NCBI GenBank assembly: GCA_040755995.1
Contig: JBFMAF010000035.1
Span: 224,001 to 288,000, forward strand
Direction of reading: 5' to 3'
Source: Acidobacteriota bacterium
GTDB lineage: Bacteria > Acidobacteriota > CAIWXX01
DNA: 64,000 nucleotides
The translations under genes were made by a program, and so were the position numbers. Positions 27,434 through 37,266 of the stretch are shown one piece after another. Under the pieces are notes generated by a model. It saw only the letters and a program-made list of their open reading frames with translations, was not told the origin of the DNA and did not search any database. How positions within the stretch are numbered: the first letter of the stretch is position 1; every line of letters starts with the position of its first letter.

Positions 27434-30109
27434 CTACTCCTCCACCGGCGCGAAGCGGCCCTGGAAGAAGCGCAGGTGCGGCGGCTCGTAGACGAAGCGC
27501 AGGCCCTTGATCGTGTGGCGCCGCTCGTAGAGCCGGATGATCCCGTCGGCCGTCGCCCGCAAGTGATCCTCGCTGTAGACGCGCCGCGGGATCGTCAGGC
27601 GCACCAGCTCGAGCGACGGCCGGTAGTTCTTGCCGGTTTGCGCGTCACGGCCCTTTGAAACGTTGCCCCGCTCCATCACCCGCACGCCGGTCTCGATGTA
27701 GATCTCGGCCGCCAGTCGCTGCGCCGGGTACTCATCCTGGTCGATGTGCGGCAGGAAGCGCCTCGCATCGATGAAGATCGCGTGGCTGCCCGGAGGCATC
27801 ACGATGGGGACGCCCTCATGGAGGAGCCTCCCGCCGAGATACGCGGCCTGTTCGACGCGCGATCTGATGTATCGATCATCCAGCATCTCCTTGACACCCA
27901 GAGCCATCGCGGCGAGCTCCGAGGCCGACAGCCCGCCGTCTCTCACGTTGCCCTCGTAGACCCGCAGCATCTCTTCGGCCTTCGCCTTCAGCTCCTCGTT
28001 CTCCTTGAACGCCAGGAGGCCGCCCATGTTGATCAGGAAGTCCTTCTTGCCCGAGACGGTGCAGCCGTCCCCGTAGAGCATCATCTCGCGGAGAATGTCG
28101 CGTATGCGGGTCTTGCGATACCGGGGATCGCGCTTCTGAATGAAGTATGCGTTCTCCACAGCCCTTGTCGCATCGAACAGCACCGGGATCTCCTTCGAGC
28201 TGCAGTAGGTGTACACCTCTTTCATGTTGTCCATGCTGACCGGCTGGCCTCCGGCCATATTCACCGAGTGCTCGAAAGAGATGTAAGCCACCTTGCCGGC
28301 GCCATGCTTGTCCACGACGGCGCGCAGCTTGTCCATGTCGATGTTGCCCTTCCACGGGAAATCGTTCGTCGGATCGTGCGCCGCGTCCACGATGATGTCG
28401 ATGAAGACACCTCCGGCCATTTCCTGGTGGAGCTTCGTCGTGGTGAAGTACATGTTGCCTGGGACCAGCTGGCCGGGCTTGATCATGATCTGGCTAAGAA
28501 TGTGCTCGGCCGCCCGCCCCTGGTGCGTCGGAACGACGTGCTCGTAGCCGTAGATGTCCTTGATCGCGGCCACGAAGTGCTGGTAGGCGTCGCTTGTGGC
28601 GGGAGTTGTCCGGGCGGCATCGTGGGCGGCCCACTGGTCGGTGCTCATCGCCGAGGTTCCGGAATCCGTGAGCAGGTCGATGGATACATCGGCCGACCTC
28701 AGCAAGAACGTGTTGTAGCCCGCCTCGCGAACGGCCTTCTCCCGCTGGCTCCGATTGATCTGCGCGATCCTCTCGATCGTATGAATCAAGAACGGATTGC
28801 AGTCGAATTCGAACTCGTCCAGATCCGCGAAGATCGAGCGGAAACGGAGCTGGTCGTGCCACTTGCCGGTGCCCGCCGGATCGAGCCCGGCGACCTTGTC
28901 GCGCTGCCTGTAGACGTTGATCACCGCGCGGGCGATCTGGTCGAGCTGCGCGTTGGTCAGCGCGAGCCGCGGCACCTGTATGGGCACAAGGCTGTCGCGC
29001 CCCACCAGGCCGGCGACGAGCGCGCGCACGCCCGAGGTCTGGTATAGAGCGCAGGCAAAGGCGTGCTGTGCGTAAGACCTGATTTGCGGCAGCACTTCGT
29101 CGGCCTTCACGTAGGCTCCGTCGCACCCGCGCTCGAGCGGTACGCCCGCTTCCTTCAACTTCGCCGTGAACCTCTCGGCCTGGTGCATGATCCAGTGCAC
29201 CTCCGGCTCGATGCACATCTCGTCCAGCCCCCTGGCAAGCACCTCCATGGTCCTGCCCGACATGCCTCCGTAGGTGTGCAGCCCCTCGTATACGACCACC
29301 TCGTTGATGAACTTCTCGTGGTGGGCGGGATTGTCGGTGGCGATCAGCCCGCCGGTGCTGCACCTGGCATCCTGAGCGCCGTCGAACACAAGCACGTGCG
29401 CCGTCTTGGCGATCTGCTTGACTATCTCCGCTATCGTCCGATGACCGTACGCAGGCTCGTGGCGCTGGACATACCAGGCGTTCTCCACGATCCTCGAAGC
29501 GTCCATGACCAGGCGCAGCCCGTGCCGGTCGGCGGCCGCGCGCACGGCCATCAGGTTCGCCATGCTGAACGGGTGCTGCCCATCGGCAAATGTCTGCATC
29601 CCCACGAACGCAACCCCGCCCTTCGAGAGCGTCGATTCCAGCCTGCGGACATCCACGTTGCCCGTGAACAGACTCTCCTCGTGGTCGCGAACGTCGATCA
29701 CACTGATCCCACGAGGCGACAGGTGGTCGATGCGCGTGAGCGCGTTGCTGGTGATGGCGGATCCCTTCGGCAGCATGGTCGAGGCCACGAGCTTCACGCT
29801 GCCGGTCAGATTGTGCGTCGGGCAAACGTACGTGTGCCCGAACACCCTCGTGACTACGTGCTGCAGCGTCTCGAAGTTGCGCGCGCCCGCATACGCCTCG
29901 TCGCCGATCAACTGTCCCGCCAGCTGCTCCTGGCTGTAGGCGCCGGTGCCGGTCGAGCACATGTCGAAGCTGACCTGCGACGGCGTCAGGTTGAATACGT
30001 TGAAGTGCGCGCTCGCCAGGTGCTTCTTCCGCTCTTCGAGCGCAGGGAACGCGATCAGACGGACCGTCTTTATCTTGTGAGGTTCGTGCAGAGGGATCCT
30101 GTTGCTCAT
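27434..30109 (-). CDS. Tandem-duplicated beta-eliminating lyase (tyrosine phenol-lyase-like), two fused protomer-length domains
   Basis: N-half has EPHKIK, GDEAYAG and YEGLHTYGG. C-half has DLLTDSGT, PTHQGR, GNMYFTTT, DATR, SGKKD, MERG, RLTIPRRVY and LRFF. At 891 aa it is about twice a TPL/TnaA subunit. Confidence 0.92.
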   Translation of the reverse strand: MSNRIPLHEPHKIKTVRLIAFPALEERKKHLASAHFNVFNLTPSQVSFDMCSTGTGAYSQEQLAGQLIGDEAYAGARNFETLQHVVTRVFGHTYVCPTHNLTGSVKLVASTMLPKGSAITSNALTRIDHLSPRGISVIDVRDHEESLFTGNVDVRRLESTLSKGGVAFVGMQTFADGQHPFSMANLMAVRAAADRHGLRLVMDASRIVENAWYVQRHEPAYGHRTIAEIVKQIAKTAHVLVFDGAQDARCSTGGLIATDNPAHHEKFINEVVVYEGLHTYGGMSGRTMEVLARGLDEMCIEPEVHWIMHQAERFTAKLKEAGVPLERGCDGAYVKADEVLPQIRSYAQHAFACALYQTSGVRALVAGLVGRDSLVPIQVPRLALTNAQLDQIARAVINVYRQRDKVAGLDPAGTGKWHDQLRFRSIFADLDEFEFDCNPFLIHTIERIAQINRSQREKAVREAGYNTFLLRSADVSIDLLTDSGTSAMSTDQWAAHDAARTTPATSDAYQHFVAAIKDIYGYEHVVPTHQGRAAEHILSQIMIKPGQLVPGNMYFTTTKLHQEMAGGVFIDIIVDAAHDPTNDFPWKGNIDMDKLRAVVDKHGAGKVAYISFEHSVNMAGGQPVSMDNMKEVYTYCSSKEIPVLFDATRAVENAYFIQKRDPRYRKTRIRDILREMMLYGDGCTVSGKKDFLINMGGLLAFKENEELKAKAEEMLRVYEGNVRDGGLSASELAAMALGVKEMLDDRYIRSRVEQAAYLGGRLLHEGVPIVMPPGSHAIFIDARRFLPHIDQDEYPAQRLAAEIYIETGVRVMERGNVSKGRDAQTGKNYRPSLELVRLTIPRRVYSEDHLRATADGIIRLYERRHTIKGLRFVYEPPHLRFFQGRFAPVEE

Positions 30110-30122
30110 TTCTGTCTCCCTT

Positions 30123-30170
30123 CCTGAGACTCAGGCGGAATACTATAGACCGGCGCAGCAAGGTGGTCAA
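30123..30170 (-). promoter_or_regulatory. Sigma-70 promoter plus downstream palindrome upstream of the tandem lyase
   Basis: Minus strand TTGACC(30170-30165)-N17-TATAGT(30147-30142); palindrome CCTGAGACTCAGG at 30123-30135 next to the RBS. Confidence 0.65.
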
Positions 30171-34087: not shown

Positions 34088-35392
34088 TCATCGCTTCACC
34101 GCCTTGAGCGTCTCGCGGAAGACATCCAGAGTCGTATCGACGTCAGCCTCGGAGTGAGCGAGGCACATGAACCACGGCTCGCGCGGGTCGTGGTCGGTCA
34201 TCACTCCGCGCTCTACCATCGCTTTGACCAGCGCCAGGAAGTACTGCTTGTCGCTCCGATTCCACGACCGTTGGTCTGTGACCTTCTCGACTCCGACGGC
34301 ATACGAGAACATGGACGGGAATCCGTTCATGCAGAAGGGGATGCTCATTTCGGCAAAAATTCGGCAGATCCCGTCCATGAGGCGCCGGCCGCGCTTCTCG
34401 ATAGTCTTGAGCACCGGTTCGCGCTCGAGCACCGTGAGAGTGGCCCAGGCCGCGGCCACACCGGGCTTGTTGTTGGTGAATGTCCCGCCCTGAGCGACGC
34501 CGTGCCCGACGAGTGACATGATTTCTTTCTTGCCGGCGAAGGCCGCCAGCGGGTAGCCGTTCGCCAGGGCCTTCGCGTAGGTGGCCATGTCAGGCTTGAT
34601 GCCGTAGTACTCTTGGGCTCCGCCGTTGGCGATGCGGAAGCCGGTCTTGACCTCGTCGAGGATGAAGACGATTCCGTACTTGTCGCACTGGCTGCGAATG
34701 AAATGGAGGAAGCCGTCCTGCGGCAGTATTGCGCCGCAATTGCCCATGCACGGCTCGGTGATGATGGCCGCCACCTGCTCGCCGGCGGACCTCAGCGTCT
34801 GCTCCAGGATTTCAGGTTCGTTGAACGGCAGCGTGATGATGAGCTCGTTCAGCGCCCGCGGGATTCCGGAGCTTGCCGGAACCGCGATCGGGTTTCGCGG
34901 ATGGCCGTACGCTTCCGCCGGGGCGTAGGTCGACCACAGAGTGTAGTCCTGCATGCCGTGGTAGCACCCCTCGAACTTGACGATCTTCTCGCGACCCGTG
35001 AAGGCCCGCGCTACTCGGATCGCGTGCATGGTCGCTTCGGTGCCGGAGCAGGCGAAGCGCACCATCTCGATTGCGGGACACATCCGGATCATCTTCTCGA
35101 CCACCTCGATCTCGAGCTCGTACGTCATGGCCGCCATCGAGCCGTTGTCGATTTCCTCCTTGACCTTGGCATTGACCTCGTCGTCGGCATGACCCAGAAT
35201 GATCGGGCCGAACGCCAGGCGGTAGTCAATGTACCTGTTCCCGTCTGCGTCCCAGAGATAGGCTCCTTTCGCCTTCTTCATGTAGGGCGTCACCCCCTCG
35301 CCCCAGTAACGGAAGTTCGAATTGACGCCTAGCGGCATGACCTTGGATGCTCTCTGTTGAAGCGCTCTGTTCTCTTCCCAACGGATTTTCAT
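34088..35392 (-). CDS. Class-III PLP aminotransferase (GSA-aminomutase-like)
   Basis: DADGNRYID, SGTEAT, FEGCYHG, DEVKTGFR, PLP Lys in YAKALANG and GGTF. Confidence 0.9.
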   Translation of the reverse strand: MKIRWEENRALQQRASKVMPLGVNSNFRYWGEGVTPYMKKAKGAYLWDADGNRYIDYRLAFGPIILGHADDEVNAKVKEEIDNGSMAAMTYELEIEVVEKMIRMCPAIEMVRFACSGTEATMHAIRVARAFTGREKIVKFEGCYHGMQDYTLWSTYAPAEAYGHPRNPIAVPASSGIPRALNELIITLPFNEPEILEQTLRSAGEQVAAIITEPCMGNCGAILPQDGFLHFIRSQCDKYGIVFILDEVKTGFRIANGGAQEYYGIKPDMATYAKALANGYPLAAFAGKKEIMSLVGHGVAQGGTFTNNKPGVAAAWATLTVLEREPVLKTIEKRGRRLMDGICRIFAEMSIPFCMNGFPSMFSYAVGVEKVTDQRSWNRSDKQYFLALVKAMVERGVMTDHDPREPWFMCLAHSEADVDTTLDVFRETLKAVKR

Positions 35393-36027: not shown

Positions 36028-37266
36028 TCAGTTGATCTGCGTCTCGAACCTGCGGGTGACGCGCAGGTTGCGGCGCCCCAGCTCGGCGACGAACTCATCG
36101 CGCACGCCGCGGTCCAGGATCTCCGGCGCGACGACACCTTTGTCCTTGATCCTCCCCTTGACCACGAGCTCGGCGTAGATCGCGGCGGGCGTGCTCGTTC
36201 CGTACGACACGCAGGTCGCTCCGGGAATCCGCCCGTTGACCCACTTGATGTCGGGCGGGAAGACGTAGTACGTGATGCTCGCCGGCTTCCCGCCCTTTTC
36301 GCCGATGCAGTCTACGGCCACCACACCGTGATCGGTGATCTCGCCGGCCAGGGCGAGCCTGGCCAGCTCGTCGGCCGGAGGGTTGGGCGGCAAGGTGGCG
36401 ACGTACACATCAATCGGCCTGACCTTGGTGCCGTCTTTCAGCGTCACCGGGTGTTTGCTCACTAGGCCTGAGCTCACCAGGGCGAGCTCGGCGTCGATGC
36501 CTGCTTCAGGTCCCCCCATCTTGAAGTCGACGTAGCGCAGCCCCTTGTCGCCGAACTTCCGCGGAAGCAGGCGCGGCAGCGTGCTGACCTCCTCATGGTC
36601 GTGGCAGATCACTGTGCCCAGGCCGAACGGCTTTGGGAACATGTATTTCTCGCGACGGCCATAGATCTCGACGCGCTTGAACTCGCCGTCCTCGTAGAGC
36701 AGCGGCGGTTGCGCACAATCCGTGAGGTAGGTTTCCTGCGACCAGACCTGCAGCGGCACCGGCGACTCGAAGATGGAAAAGTCCTTGATGCGGATCTCGT
36801 AGCACCTGTCGAGGTCCTCGTAGCCGTTGGCTGCGAAGGTGTTCGTGACGCCCGGGTCCATCCCTGTGCTCAACAGCGCACTGAGCCCGGCCGCGCGGAA
36901 GTCCCCGTCGAGCTCCAGCTGCTCCAGAAAGACCTCGTCGATCGTCTTGGTTGCGGTCTGGCCTGAAGCCATGTCCTGGTAGTCCACCCCGGCCCTGAGG
37001 CAAGCCCTCATGATGGCCACGTTGAACTCGGGCGTGACGGCGTTCACAACGAGTTTGGCGCCGCCGGCGGCCCTGGCCACTGCGTCCTGATCGCCGGCGT
37101 CGATTCTCATCGCCCTGGCCTTGCCGTTGCCGGCCTGGCCGGCTACGAAGCGCGCCCGGGACTCGTTGGAGTCGGCGACGATGATTTGGGTGATCCCGGG
37201 GCAGCGTCCGAAGTTCCAGGTGAGCACCTGGCCCTGCATGCCGGCTCCTACGACGAGGACTCTCAT
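36028..37266 (-). CDS. Saccharopine-dehydrogenase-family protein (carboxy(nor)spermidine dehydrogenase-like)
   Basis: Rossmann VVGAGMQG; YQDMA; GMDPGVTN; HEEV; GVVAPE. Confidence 0.85.
   Translation of the reverse strand: MRVLVVGAGMQGQVLTWNFGRCPGITQIIVADSNESRARFVAGQAGNGKARAMRIDAGDQDAVARAAGGAKLVVNAVTPEFNVAIMRACLRAGVDYQDMASGQTATKTIDEVFLEQLELDGDFRAAGLSALLSTGMDPGVTNTFAANGYEDLDRCYEIRIKDFSIFESPVPLQVWSQETYLTDCAQPPLLYEDGEFKRVEIYGRREKYMFPKPFGLGTVICHDHEEVSTLPRLLPRKFGDKGLRYVDFKMGGPEAGIDAELALVSSGLVSKHPVTLKDGTKVRPIDVYVATLPPNPPADELARLALAGEITDHGVVAVDCIGEKGGKPASITYYVFPPDIKWVNGRIPGATCVSYGTSTPAAIYAELVVKGRIKDKGVVAPEILDRGVRDEFVAELGRRNLRVTRRFETQIN

Follow-up and report, generated by a model that had tools for sequence, protein, structure and literature searches.

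A tandem tyrosine phenol-lyase-like protein with complementary loss of active-site residues in its two halves, a probable single-chain pseudo-heterodimer

The stretch of DNA analysed here (the window: 64,000 nucleotides of contig JBFMAF010000035.1 from an Acidobacteriota genome, assembly GCA_040755995.1) encodes an 891-residue protein composed of two consecutive domains of the tyrosine phenol-lyase (TPL) and tryptophanase (TnaA) type, enzymes dependent on pyridoxal phosphate (PLP). The C-terminal domain (C-half) has preserved the cofactor- and substrate-binding residues of TPL and lacks those residues which, in the characterised enzymes, are lent to the active site of the neighbouring subunit, while the N-terminal domain (N-half) shows the reverse. 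On the alignments and models presented here, this tandem lyase is a real, conserved and well-supported feature, and it probably (at a rough probability of 0.78) represents a single-chain pseudo-heterodimer with one composite active site, formed by cis residues of the C-half and trans residues of the N-half. Such an arrangement had been proposed by an initial sequence-only reading of the window and finds support in the conserved complementary loss, in the invariant trans loops of the N-half and in the predicted interface between the halves, evidence that is computational throughout.

Complementary residue loss in two fused halves

The gene coordinates and residue numbers of that reading were correct, and all motifs that it quoted were found and checked by position on the translation; the strand is added here (Table 1). 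The proposed fusion of two TPL/TnaA-like domains near residue 435 is likewise borne out, as Pfam PF01212 (Beta_elim_lyase) recognises the whole protein in two stretches (304.4 bits, gathering cut-off 27 bits) and the N-half alone with 90.2 bits, a weak PF01041 being the only other Pfam match of the whole protein, and as both halves match solved TPL chains, the C-half with E 1.6e-161 (residues 435-886 on residues 3-453 of 1c7g_A) and the N-half, more weakly, with E 1.6e-58 (residues 9-410 on residues 6-438 of 9j3u_A). By these matches the homology of both halves to solved TPLs is real. They meet at residue 434/435 (nt 28807/28808), where, according to translation and alignments, the C-terminal segment of the N-half continues directly into the N-terminal strand of the C-half, with no added linker.

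Residues were mapped through HMMER alignments to TPL chains, with Citrobacter freundii TPL numbering. The C-half retains the equivalents of TPL Thr49, Asp50, Gly52, Gln98, Gly99, Arg100, Phe123, Thr124, Asn185, Asp214, Arg217, Ser254, Lys256, Lys257, Arg381, Arg404, Phe448 and Phe449, with DLLTDSG (478-484) and FDATR (645-649) as further motifs, and carries Thr501, Pro503 and Asp724 in place of Glu69, Tyr71 and Tyr291. The N-half retains precisely these three as Glu71, Tyr73 and Tyr280, and among the cofactor ligands has kept only the equivalents of Asp214 and Arg217; Gln246 replaces Lys257, the Asn-Leu-Thr of PTHNLT (residues 97-102) replaces Gln98-Gly99-Arg100, and Asp243, Ala245, an Ala and a Pro stand for Ser254, Lys256, Arg381 and Arg404, respectively. 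The complementary loss claimed from the sequence alone is thereby confirmed in the alignments.

Homologues of the protein were collected by a word-seeded search, which returned 1390 proteins at E <= 1e-3 among 8000 scored candidates; the best 120 (885-934 aa, 69-77% identity, 99-100% query coverage, named 'tryptophanase' or 'tyrosine phenol-lyase' where the sources give a name) were aligned with the window protein by MAFFT. All 121 rows show the complementary pattern. Invariant are the 18 listed cis positions of the C-half (among them Lys688, Lys689, Gln530, Gly531, Arg532, Phe555, Thr556, Asn617, Asp646, Arg649, Ser686, Arg814, Arg837, Phe881 and Phe882), and with them both the TPL cofactor set (Lys257, Gln98, Gly99, Arg100, Asp214, Arg217, Ser254) and its specificity and catalytic set (Thr124, Arg381, Phe448, Phe449, Arg404), as well as Glu71, Tyr73, Leu277 and Tyr280 of the N-half. 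The lysine position of the N-half is occupied by Gln (120/121) or Met (1/121); in the C-half the Tyr71 position never holds Tyr (Pro 90, Ser 14, Ala 12, Thr 3, Val 1, Asp 1) and the Tyr291 position holds Asp (120) or Asn (1). Such a pattern lies far beyond chance. Where TPL has Arg100, the dead pocket of the N-half has Thr102 in the window protein (29804-29806) and Leu in 117/121 family members.

Many columns are at least 95% conserved in each half (162/434 in the N-half, 229/457 in the C-half; mean pairwise identity 0.70 and 0.77), which argues that both halves are under constraint. Column conservation in the N-half is 1.0 at residues 69-75, except for Ala72 with 0.98, and 1.0 throughout residues 275-283; the homologous C-half loops drift, with values of 0.5-0.96 (0.51-0.96 for AARTTPAT). 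GDEAYAG and the N-half residues E275, G276, Y280, G281 and G282 are invariant even in 61/61 sequences that include forms only 35-52% identical.

A genome scan (one genome per species, 619 relatives, best 80 kept) added 19 complete tandem genes (L009-L027) and one truncated tandem gene (L072), and the complementary pattern is present in all 19 complete loci, with Gln (17), His (1) or Glu (1) at the N-half lysine position. The expectation that complementary loss is conserved among tandem homologues thus stood for close homologues and genome loci alike, and did not hold in more distant tandem forms, some of which carry the lysine, and in part also the tyrosine, in both halves. One and the same junction is seen in about 120 independently assembled clusters and in the 19 complete genome loci, which argues against an assembly artefact. 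A search for sequencing runs that contain the junction region (28500-29100) listed none with more than 0.10 of its words, and no RNA run.

Table 1. Window coordinates of the tandem lyase, its halves and motifs, and the adjacent regulator gene
Feature	Position	Strand	Remarks
Whole tandem lyase open reading frame	27434..30109	minus	891 codons, ATG start; stop codon 27434-27436
N-half, residues 1-434	28808..30109	minus	TPL-like domain without PLP lysine, putative supplier of trans residues
C-half, residues 435-891	27437..28807	minus	TPL-like domain with complete PLP and substrate binding set, without trans residues
N-half loop GDEAYAG, residues 69-75	29885..29905	minus	Glu71 = TPL Glu69; Tyr73 = TPL Tyr71 (general acid)
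N-half loop YEGLHTYGG, residues 274-282	29264..29290	minus	Leu277 = TPL Met288; Tyr280 = TPL Tyr291
N-half DGAQD, residues 243-247, replacing SGKKD	29369..29383	minus	Gln246 at PLP-lysine position; dead pocket
C-half SGKKD, residues 686-690	28040..28054	minus	Lys689 = TPL Lys257, PLP Schiff-base lysine; Lys in 121/121
C-half PTHQGR, residues 527-532	28514..28531	minus	Gln530/Gly531/Arg532 = TPL Gln98/Gly99/Arg100, cofactor binding; 121/121
C-half degenerate loop AARTTPAT, residues 498-505, replacing GDEAYAG	28595..28618	minus	Thr501 at Glu69, Pro503 at Tyr71 position
C-half degenerate loop EGNVRDGG, residues 719-726	27932..27955	minus	Asn721 at Met288, Asp724 at Tyr291 position
C-half NMYFTTT, residues 552-558	28436..28456	minus	Phe555, Thr556 = TPL Phe123, Thr124; 121/121
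C-half VMERG, residues 811-815	27665..27679	minus	Arg814 = TPL Arg381; 121/121
C-half RLTIPRR, residues 837-843	27581..27601	minus	Arg837 = TPL Arg404; 121/121
C-half LRFF, residues 879-882	27464..27475	minus	Phe881, Phe882 = TPL Phe448, Phe449; 121/121
Rrf2-family transcriptional regulator, 160 aa	30216-30698	minus	PF02082, E 2.2e-35; 106 bp upstream of the lyase, same strand

Predicted packing of the halves and the proposed composite site

In TPL, PLP is bound by Lys257, Tyr71 and Arg381 serve as general acid and general base, respectively, and Thr124 is crucial; the lysine that binds PLP is located at an interface which includes the large domain of the neighbouring 'catalytic dimer' subunit, and the canonical tetramers interlock via their N-terminal arms (PMC10170061, available part of the article). 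In E. coli TnaA, Tyr74 and Tyr307 of one subunit form bonds with the phosphate of the PLP in the adjacent subunit, and the activity of the Y74F variant is negligible (PMC2770544); in the tryptophan indole-lyase of P. vulgaris, the proton is donated by Tyr-72*, a residue of the partner chain in the catalytic dimer (PMC11301627). The available parts of the latter two articles thus back the premise of the sequence-only reading that the general-acid tyrosine is contributed by the partner subunit.

An AlphaFold2 model of the whole chain, based on a 61-sequence alignment, has a mean pLDDT of 92.6 and a pTM of 0.91 (other four models: pLDDT 79-83), and its confidence is high over the junction (10-residue block means of 92-94 for residues 411-440). 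Compared with TPL chains by Foldseek, 1c7g_A included, the model shows a TM of 0.98 on the target, an rmsd of 1.2-1.3 A and 51-53% identity over the aligned structure, each match covering one half (query TM about 0.5) and being silent on the packing of the halves. The packing itself is predicted by models: with the C-half (PLP riding along) and the N-half entered as separate chains, complex prediction gave a score of 0.87, and 0.00 for the best of three controls, a mark reached by 116/157 solved complexes and 2/215 mismatched pairs, counts which are rough here, as an own alignment and the ligand were used. Contact agreement in the runs was at least 92% and partner pLDDT at least 91. Predicted contacts connect Asn694 (TPL Asn262), Gly484 (Gly52) and Thr485 of the C-half with N-half Glu71, and C-half Arg532 (Arg100) with N-half residue 273; on the side of the N-half, residues 70-77, 276-278 and 282-287 are in the predicted interface. 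According to these models the packing of the halves is of the catalytic-dimer type. In TPL, Gly52 and Asn262 of one subunit and Glu69 of the other form the potassium site. Interface residues are enriched among the at least 95% conserved columns in the N-half (31/55 vs 131/379, Fisher p 0.0026) and not in the C-half (31/56 vs 198/401, p 0.48).

In the proposed mechanism, two TPL-like fold-type-I PLP domains would pack like the two subunits of the TPL/tryptophanase catalytic dimer, with the C-half supplying Lys689, the cofactor ligands Gln530, Gly531, Arg532, Asp646, Arg649 and Ser686 and the substrate residues Phe555, Thr556, Arg814, Arg837, Phe881 and Phe882, plus Gly484 and Asn694, and with the N-half contributing Tyr73 (the general acid), Glu71 and Tyr280 from across the interface. 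On both sides the mirror-image site would be dead, the N-half being devoid of the lysine and of phosphate- and carboxylate-binding residues and the C-half having no Tyr71/Tyr291 to lend; one PLP per 98-kDa chain would be expected. We infer an intramolecular assembly, probably with a homodimer equivalent to the canonical tetramer as oligomeric state, and as substrate most likely L-tyrosine, which would be converted by beta-elimination to phenol, pyruvate and ammonia. In evolution, tethered domains may have tolerated the loss of one site, with complementary losses then locking the halves together.

Several observations weigh against this picture. Neither Lys689 nor Tyr280 is among the interface residues named by the complex prediction, the success of which may reflect memory of solved TPL/TnaA dimers and would then indicate likeness and be no evidence of binding, and the models do not discriminate between pairing within one chain and a domain swap between two. 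The trans loop of the N-half has Leu at the position of the TPL pocket residue Met288. Against NCBIfam TIGR02618, the TPL equivalog, the C-half alone scores 629.9 bits and is under the cut-off of 720.7 (N-half alone: 245.2), so that the TPL assignment rests on four specificity residues. Finally, the N-halves of three distant tandem proteins (P0132, P0136 and P0139) possess the full cofactor set including Lys257.

The same complementary logic would be served by a site between chains, with the N-half of one molecule lending its tyrosines to the C-half of another. The absence of a linker between the halves, the N-terminal arms through which canonical tetramers interlock (PMC10170061) and the blindness to topology of a complex prediction run on separate chains are all compatible with such a domain swap, which is nevertheless unlikely, as the single-chain model is confident throughout, the junction included, implying a defined intrachain packing. 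Highly improbable is a C-half that works without trans residues, for example in C-half pairs, next to an N-half that would be an appendage with no catalytic role and would serve to stabilise, regulate or localise the protein. The strong conservation of the dead N-half pocket in the close family (DGAQD at least 0.98, Asp203 120/121, Arg206 121/121) would suit an appendage, as would single-domain relatives (P0185, P0195, P0194, P0209, P0238 and P0248) in which Phe occupies the Tyr71 position and Ala or His that of Tyr291 while the PLP lysine is kept, and which probably catalyse a different reaction with no need for the general-acid tyrosine; however, the catalytic tyrosine is needed in the studied enzymes (PMC2770544; PMC11301627), and the two trans loops are the most conserved parts of the N-half and stay invariant in the most divergent of the 61 sequences mentioned above.

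For the pseudo-heterodimer with its one composite site we lean, with some reserve, towards a TPL-like beta-eliminating lyase with L-tyrosine as the most likely substrate, because TPL is the best NCBIfam model for the C-half (629.9 bits vs 432.5 and 413.3 for two TnaA equivalogs) and the TPL-type residues are invariant. The whole protein passes TIGR02618 with 868.2 bits because its two stretches add up, which overstates the fit, and stays below the cut-offs of the TnaA equivalogs TIGR02617 and NF053783 (601.3 and 667.5 bits vs 825.8 and 750; C-half 413.3 and 432.5). It departs from TPL in having Tyr71 and Tyr291 in the N-half only, not in every subunit, and in being an 891-aa tandem, not a chain of about 456 aa. 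That the architecture is right and the enzyme performs beta-elimination or beta-substitution on another amino acid is a possibility to be taken into account, though a rather doubtful one. The C-half score under the TPL cut-off and the Met288 to Leu exchange would agree with it, as would the lack of conserved neighbours pointing to tyrosine catabolism (23 loci) and the presence of a canonical 450-aa tryptophanase-like gene in the same genome. On the other side stand the ranking of the NCBIfam models and the invariant Phe448 and Phe449 equivalents, the roles of which, like that of Arg404, we presume from TPL. The equally invariant Thr124 and Arg381 equivalents, with roles described for TPL (PMC10170061), and the 51-53% structural-alignment identity to solved TPLs argue in the same direction.

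Distant tandem forms, origin and distribution

An exhaustive phmmer search of 1.84 billion representatives, with the N-half as query, yielded 1938 matches, 127 of them at <=1e-30, and among the 150 matches listed are eleven complete tandem proteins (847-928 aa) with N-halves 30-38% identical to that of the window. In 78 rows aligned by L-INS-i (both halves of 18 tandem proteins as separate rows, 37 single-domain enzymes and 5 embedded domains), Glu69, Tyr71 and Tyr291 are kept in 18/18 tandem N-halves and the cofactor set with Arg404 in 18/18 tandem C-halves, of which 0/18 have Tyr291. Besides the three N-halves with a full cofactor set, those of P0137 and P0142 have a Lys aligned at the lysine position and lack other ligands. 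The C-halves of P0136, the N-terminal part of which was confirmed, and P0139 still have Tyr71, as has that of P0142, where deletions in the region render the alignment doubtful; P0132 combines an intact N-half with a C-half without trans residues. Since the C-halves of P0132, P0136, P0137 and P0139 have lost Arg381 and most of Phe448/Phe449 (only P0132 keeps Phe448), these four proteins are probably not tyrosine-specific. The divergent forms would be compatible with a tentative path that starts at a tandem with two lysines and ends at the one-site design.

A more far-reaching and rather unlikely idea sees in the tandem lyases the extant stages of an evolutionary ratchet that turns in one direction only, with the dead pocket of the N-half put to a new use and now binding a ligand. 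The two-lysine forms P0136 and P0139, the intact N-half of P0132 and the loss of N-half pocket residues in all others (with Lys aligned in P0137 and P0142) speak for such a series; in the window's family, a re-used pocket with DGAQD, Asp203 and Arg206 might bind PLP non-covalently, or else a metabolite that acts on the live site across the shared interface.

In a quick IQ-TREE tree of 76 rows (LG+C20+F+G4 by PMSF, SH-aLRT support only, the aberrant single-domain P0232 and P0260 left out), 18/18 N-halves are on one side of a branch with support 90, and the C-halves occupy three separate positions, two or more of which are forced by starred branches; the tree has long branches (P0137_N, P0138_N, P0142_N), unusual composition in many rows and unsure deep nodes. 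N-halves and C-halves branch in mirrored order within the main TPL-like tandem clade, in agreement with halves that descended together after a single fusion. In no tandem protein are the two halves each other's sisters, and the N-halves of all tandem forms group together, so that the internal duplication which the sequence-only reading had assumed as origin is not borne out; a fusion of two already diverged paralogues and an internal duplication of one gene appear equally open.

Neither a split two-gene form nor a stand-alone N-half was encountered among 19 fetched of the 150 listed phmmer matches and three short-frame loci, no dedicated search at shorter lengths having been made. As candidates for stand-alone N-halves, P0124, P0125, P0126 and P0129 proved to be fused proteins cut at contig ends, and P0143 continues into unrelated sequence. 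Candidates for split halves (L037 3962-6770, L058 3974-6922 and L078 3911-6946) were equally rejected, the long matches being complete TPL-like and complete TnaA-like genes that lie head to tail as separate intact open reading frames, overlapping in L037, in metagenome-assembled genomes (MAGs) of Actinomycetota, Planctomycetota and Symbiobacterium. Such adjacent genes could have been a starting point for fusions.

Other domain arrangements were observed among the relatives. P0152 (625 aa) and P0172 (706 aa) begin with a hydrophobic N-terminus followed by remnants limited to the N-terminal arm and the C-terminal small-domain part of a lyase copy (weak HMM stretches) and end with an entire lyase domain in which no cis or trans residue is missing, and look like another, truncated tandem type. 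P0166 (3002 aa), P0173 (1552 aa) and P0191 (805 aa) contain complete TPL/TnaA-like domains inside longer proteins, and the PDB matches include the lyase domain of a polyketide pathway (9cen).

The 19 complete tandem loci span at least seven phyla. Source labels of the tandem loci comprise Eisenbacteria, Planctomycetales, Acidobacteria, Gemmatimonadota, Polyangiaceae, Dokdonella, Gammaproteobacteria, Saccharicrinis, Bacteroidales and Chloroflexota, with two loci labelled only 'bacterium' (L011, and L072 as 'uncultured bacterium'); 19 tandem loci are titled MAG, the exception being L023 (Gammaproteobacteria bacterium PRO6), which names no cultured strain. Among 40 relatives of the window's genome from the same family or phylum, one N-half-type match (G001, 72% identity, 926-aa open frame) was present, a second match being a single-domain gene. 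The identity of about 70% across phyla together with the patchy occurrence suggests horizontal spread.

The window's genome (7.7 Mb, 99.84% complete) also carries the single-domain 450-aa tryptophanase-like gene mentioned above (L003 1369-2721, plus strand, contig C5), with intact GDEAYAG, PTHQGR, SAKKD and PTYGG motifs, TnaA-type Asp and His specificity residues and scores (584.5 and 508.8 bits) that reach neither of the TnaA equivalog cut-offs. Neighbours of the tandem gene are an Rrf2-family regulator (Table 1), a Na/Ca exchanger, a LysM/SLT transglycosylase and a ChlI-like ATPase. Between regulator and lyase there is a sigma-70-like site (TTGACC-17-TATAGT, 30142-30170, minus strand), a single site being no more than shuffles give (0.8 on average). 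In a comparison of 23 loci (20 tandem loci, 3 adjacent-gene loci, window) the Rrf2 regulator is beside the tandem gene in none of the other 22, and a conserved operon partner was ruled out, as the largest shared-neighbour group comprises 4/23 loci, all of them Gemmatimonadota-type MAGs. A class-III aminotransferase gene (34088-35392, minus) and a saccharopine dehydrogenase-like gene (36028-37266, minus) lie a few kb off on the strand of the lyase, with no link found.

Relation to known systems

TPL and tryptophanase are textbook PLP enzymes, TPL being also an industrial L-DOPA catalyst (PMC10170061, available part). A natural single chain that puts 'cis' and 'trans' residues on separate, independently mutable halves would permit clean tests of the contribution of the partner subunit, whereas mutations in a homo-oligomer strike every site. 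With more distant tandem relatives that have both lysines, the family could also serve to study how homomers turn into obligate asymmetric pairs. The gene occurs widely among uncultured bacteria from soil and water, and its current annotation as 'tryptophanase' or 'tyrosine phenol-lyase' hides its peculiarity.

With TPL (EC 4.1.99.2; Citrobacter freundii, Erwinia herbicola; PDB 2ez1, 1tpl, 1c7g) the C-half of the tandem lyase shares the fold and the cofactor and substrate residues, and the predicted half-half interface resembles the TPL catalytic dimer. TPL, however, is a homotetramer of identical chains with four equivalent sites, while here two diverged copies are fused in one chain with at most one working site per pseudo-dimer, since each half has lost the other set. 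Tryptophanase (EC 4.1.99.1; PDB 1ax4, 2c44; TIGR02617), the sister family, is alike in that its tyrosines act on the neighbour's site and differs in its specificity residues, the C-half here being of the TPL type (Thr, not Asp, after Phe123; Arg381; Phe448, not His). No description of a fused, tandem or pseudo-dimeric TPL or tryptophanase was found in the literature covered, most subscription journals lying outside that coverage. A conceptual parallel only is provided by heterodimeric ABC exporters, in which one of two interface sites is degenerate and the other catalytic (PMC7756269, available part); fold and chemistry are unrelated and homology is not implied.

The glycine decarboxylase P-protein (GLDC/GcvP) in its single-chain form is likewise a PLP enzyme of fold type I, about 1000 aa long, with the PLP lysine in its C-terminal part (Lys754 in human GLDC), and in its N-terminal PLP fold a Gln replaces the lysine, which amounts to the same half order and the same Lys-to-Gln exchange as in the tandem lyase (PMC7259800, available part). 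It differs in belonging to a separate family, no P-protein domain being among the Pfam matches of the tandem lyase, and in catalysing a decarboxylation with a lipoyl-protein partner. The P-protein is the closest architectural precedent that could be documented, the resemblance being one of design and not of descent. Two-subunit (alpha/beta) P-proteins exist as well, and the P-protein active site lies between the halves. While its principle is therefore already known from the P-protein, the occurrence of such a design in TPL-like lyases appears undescribed, and would constitute a second independent case in which a fold-type-I PLP dimer has become a fused pseudo-dimer with a dead half marked by a Lys-to-Gln exchange.

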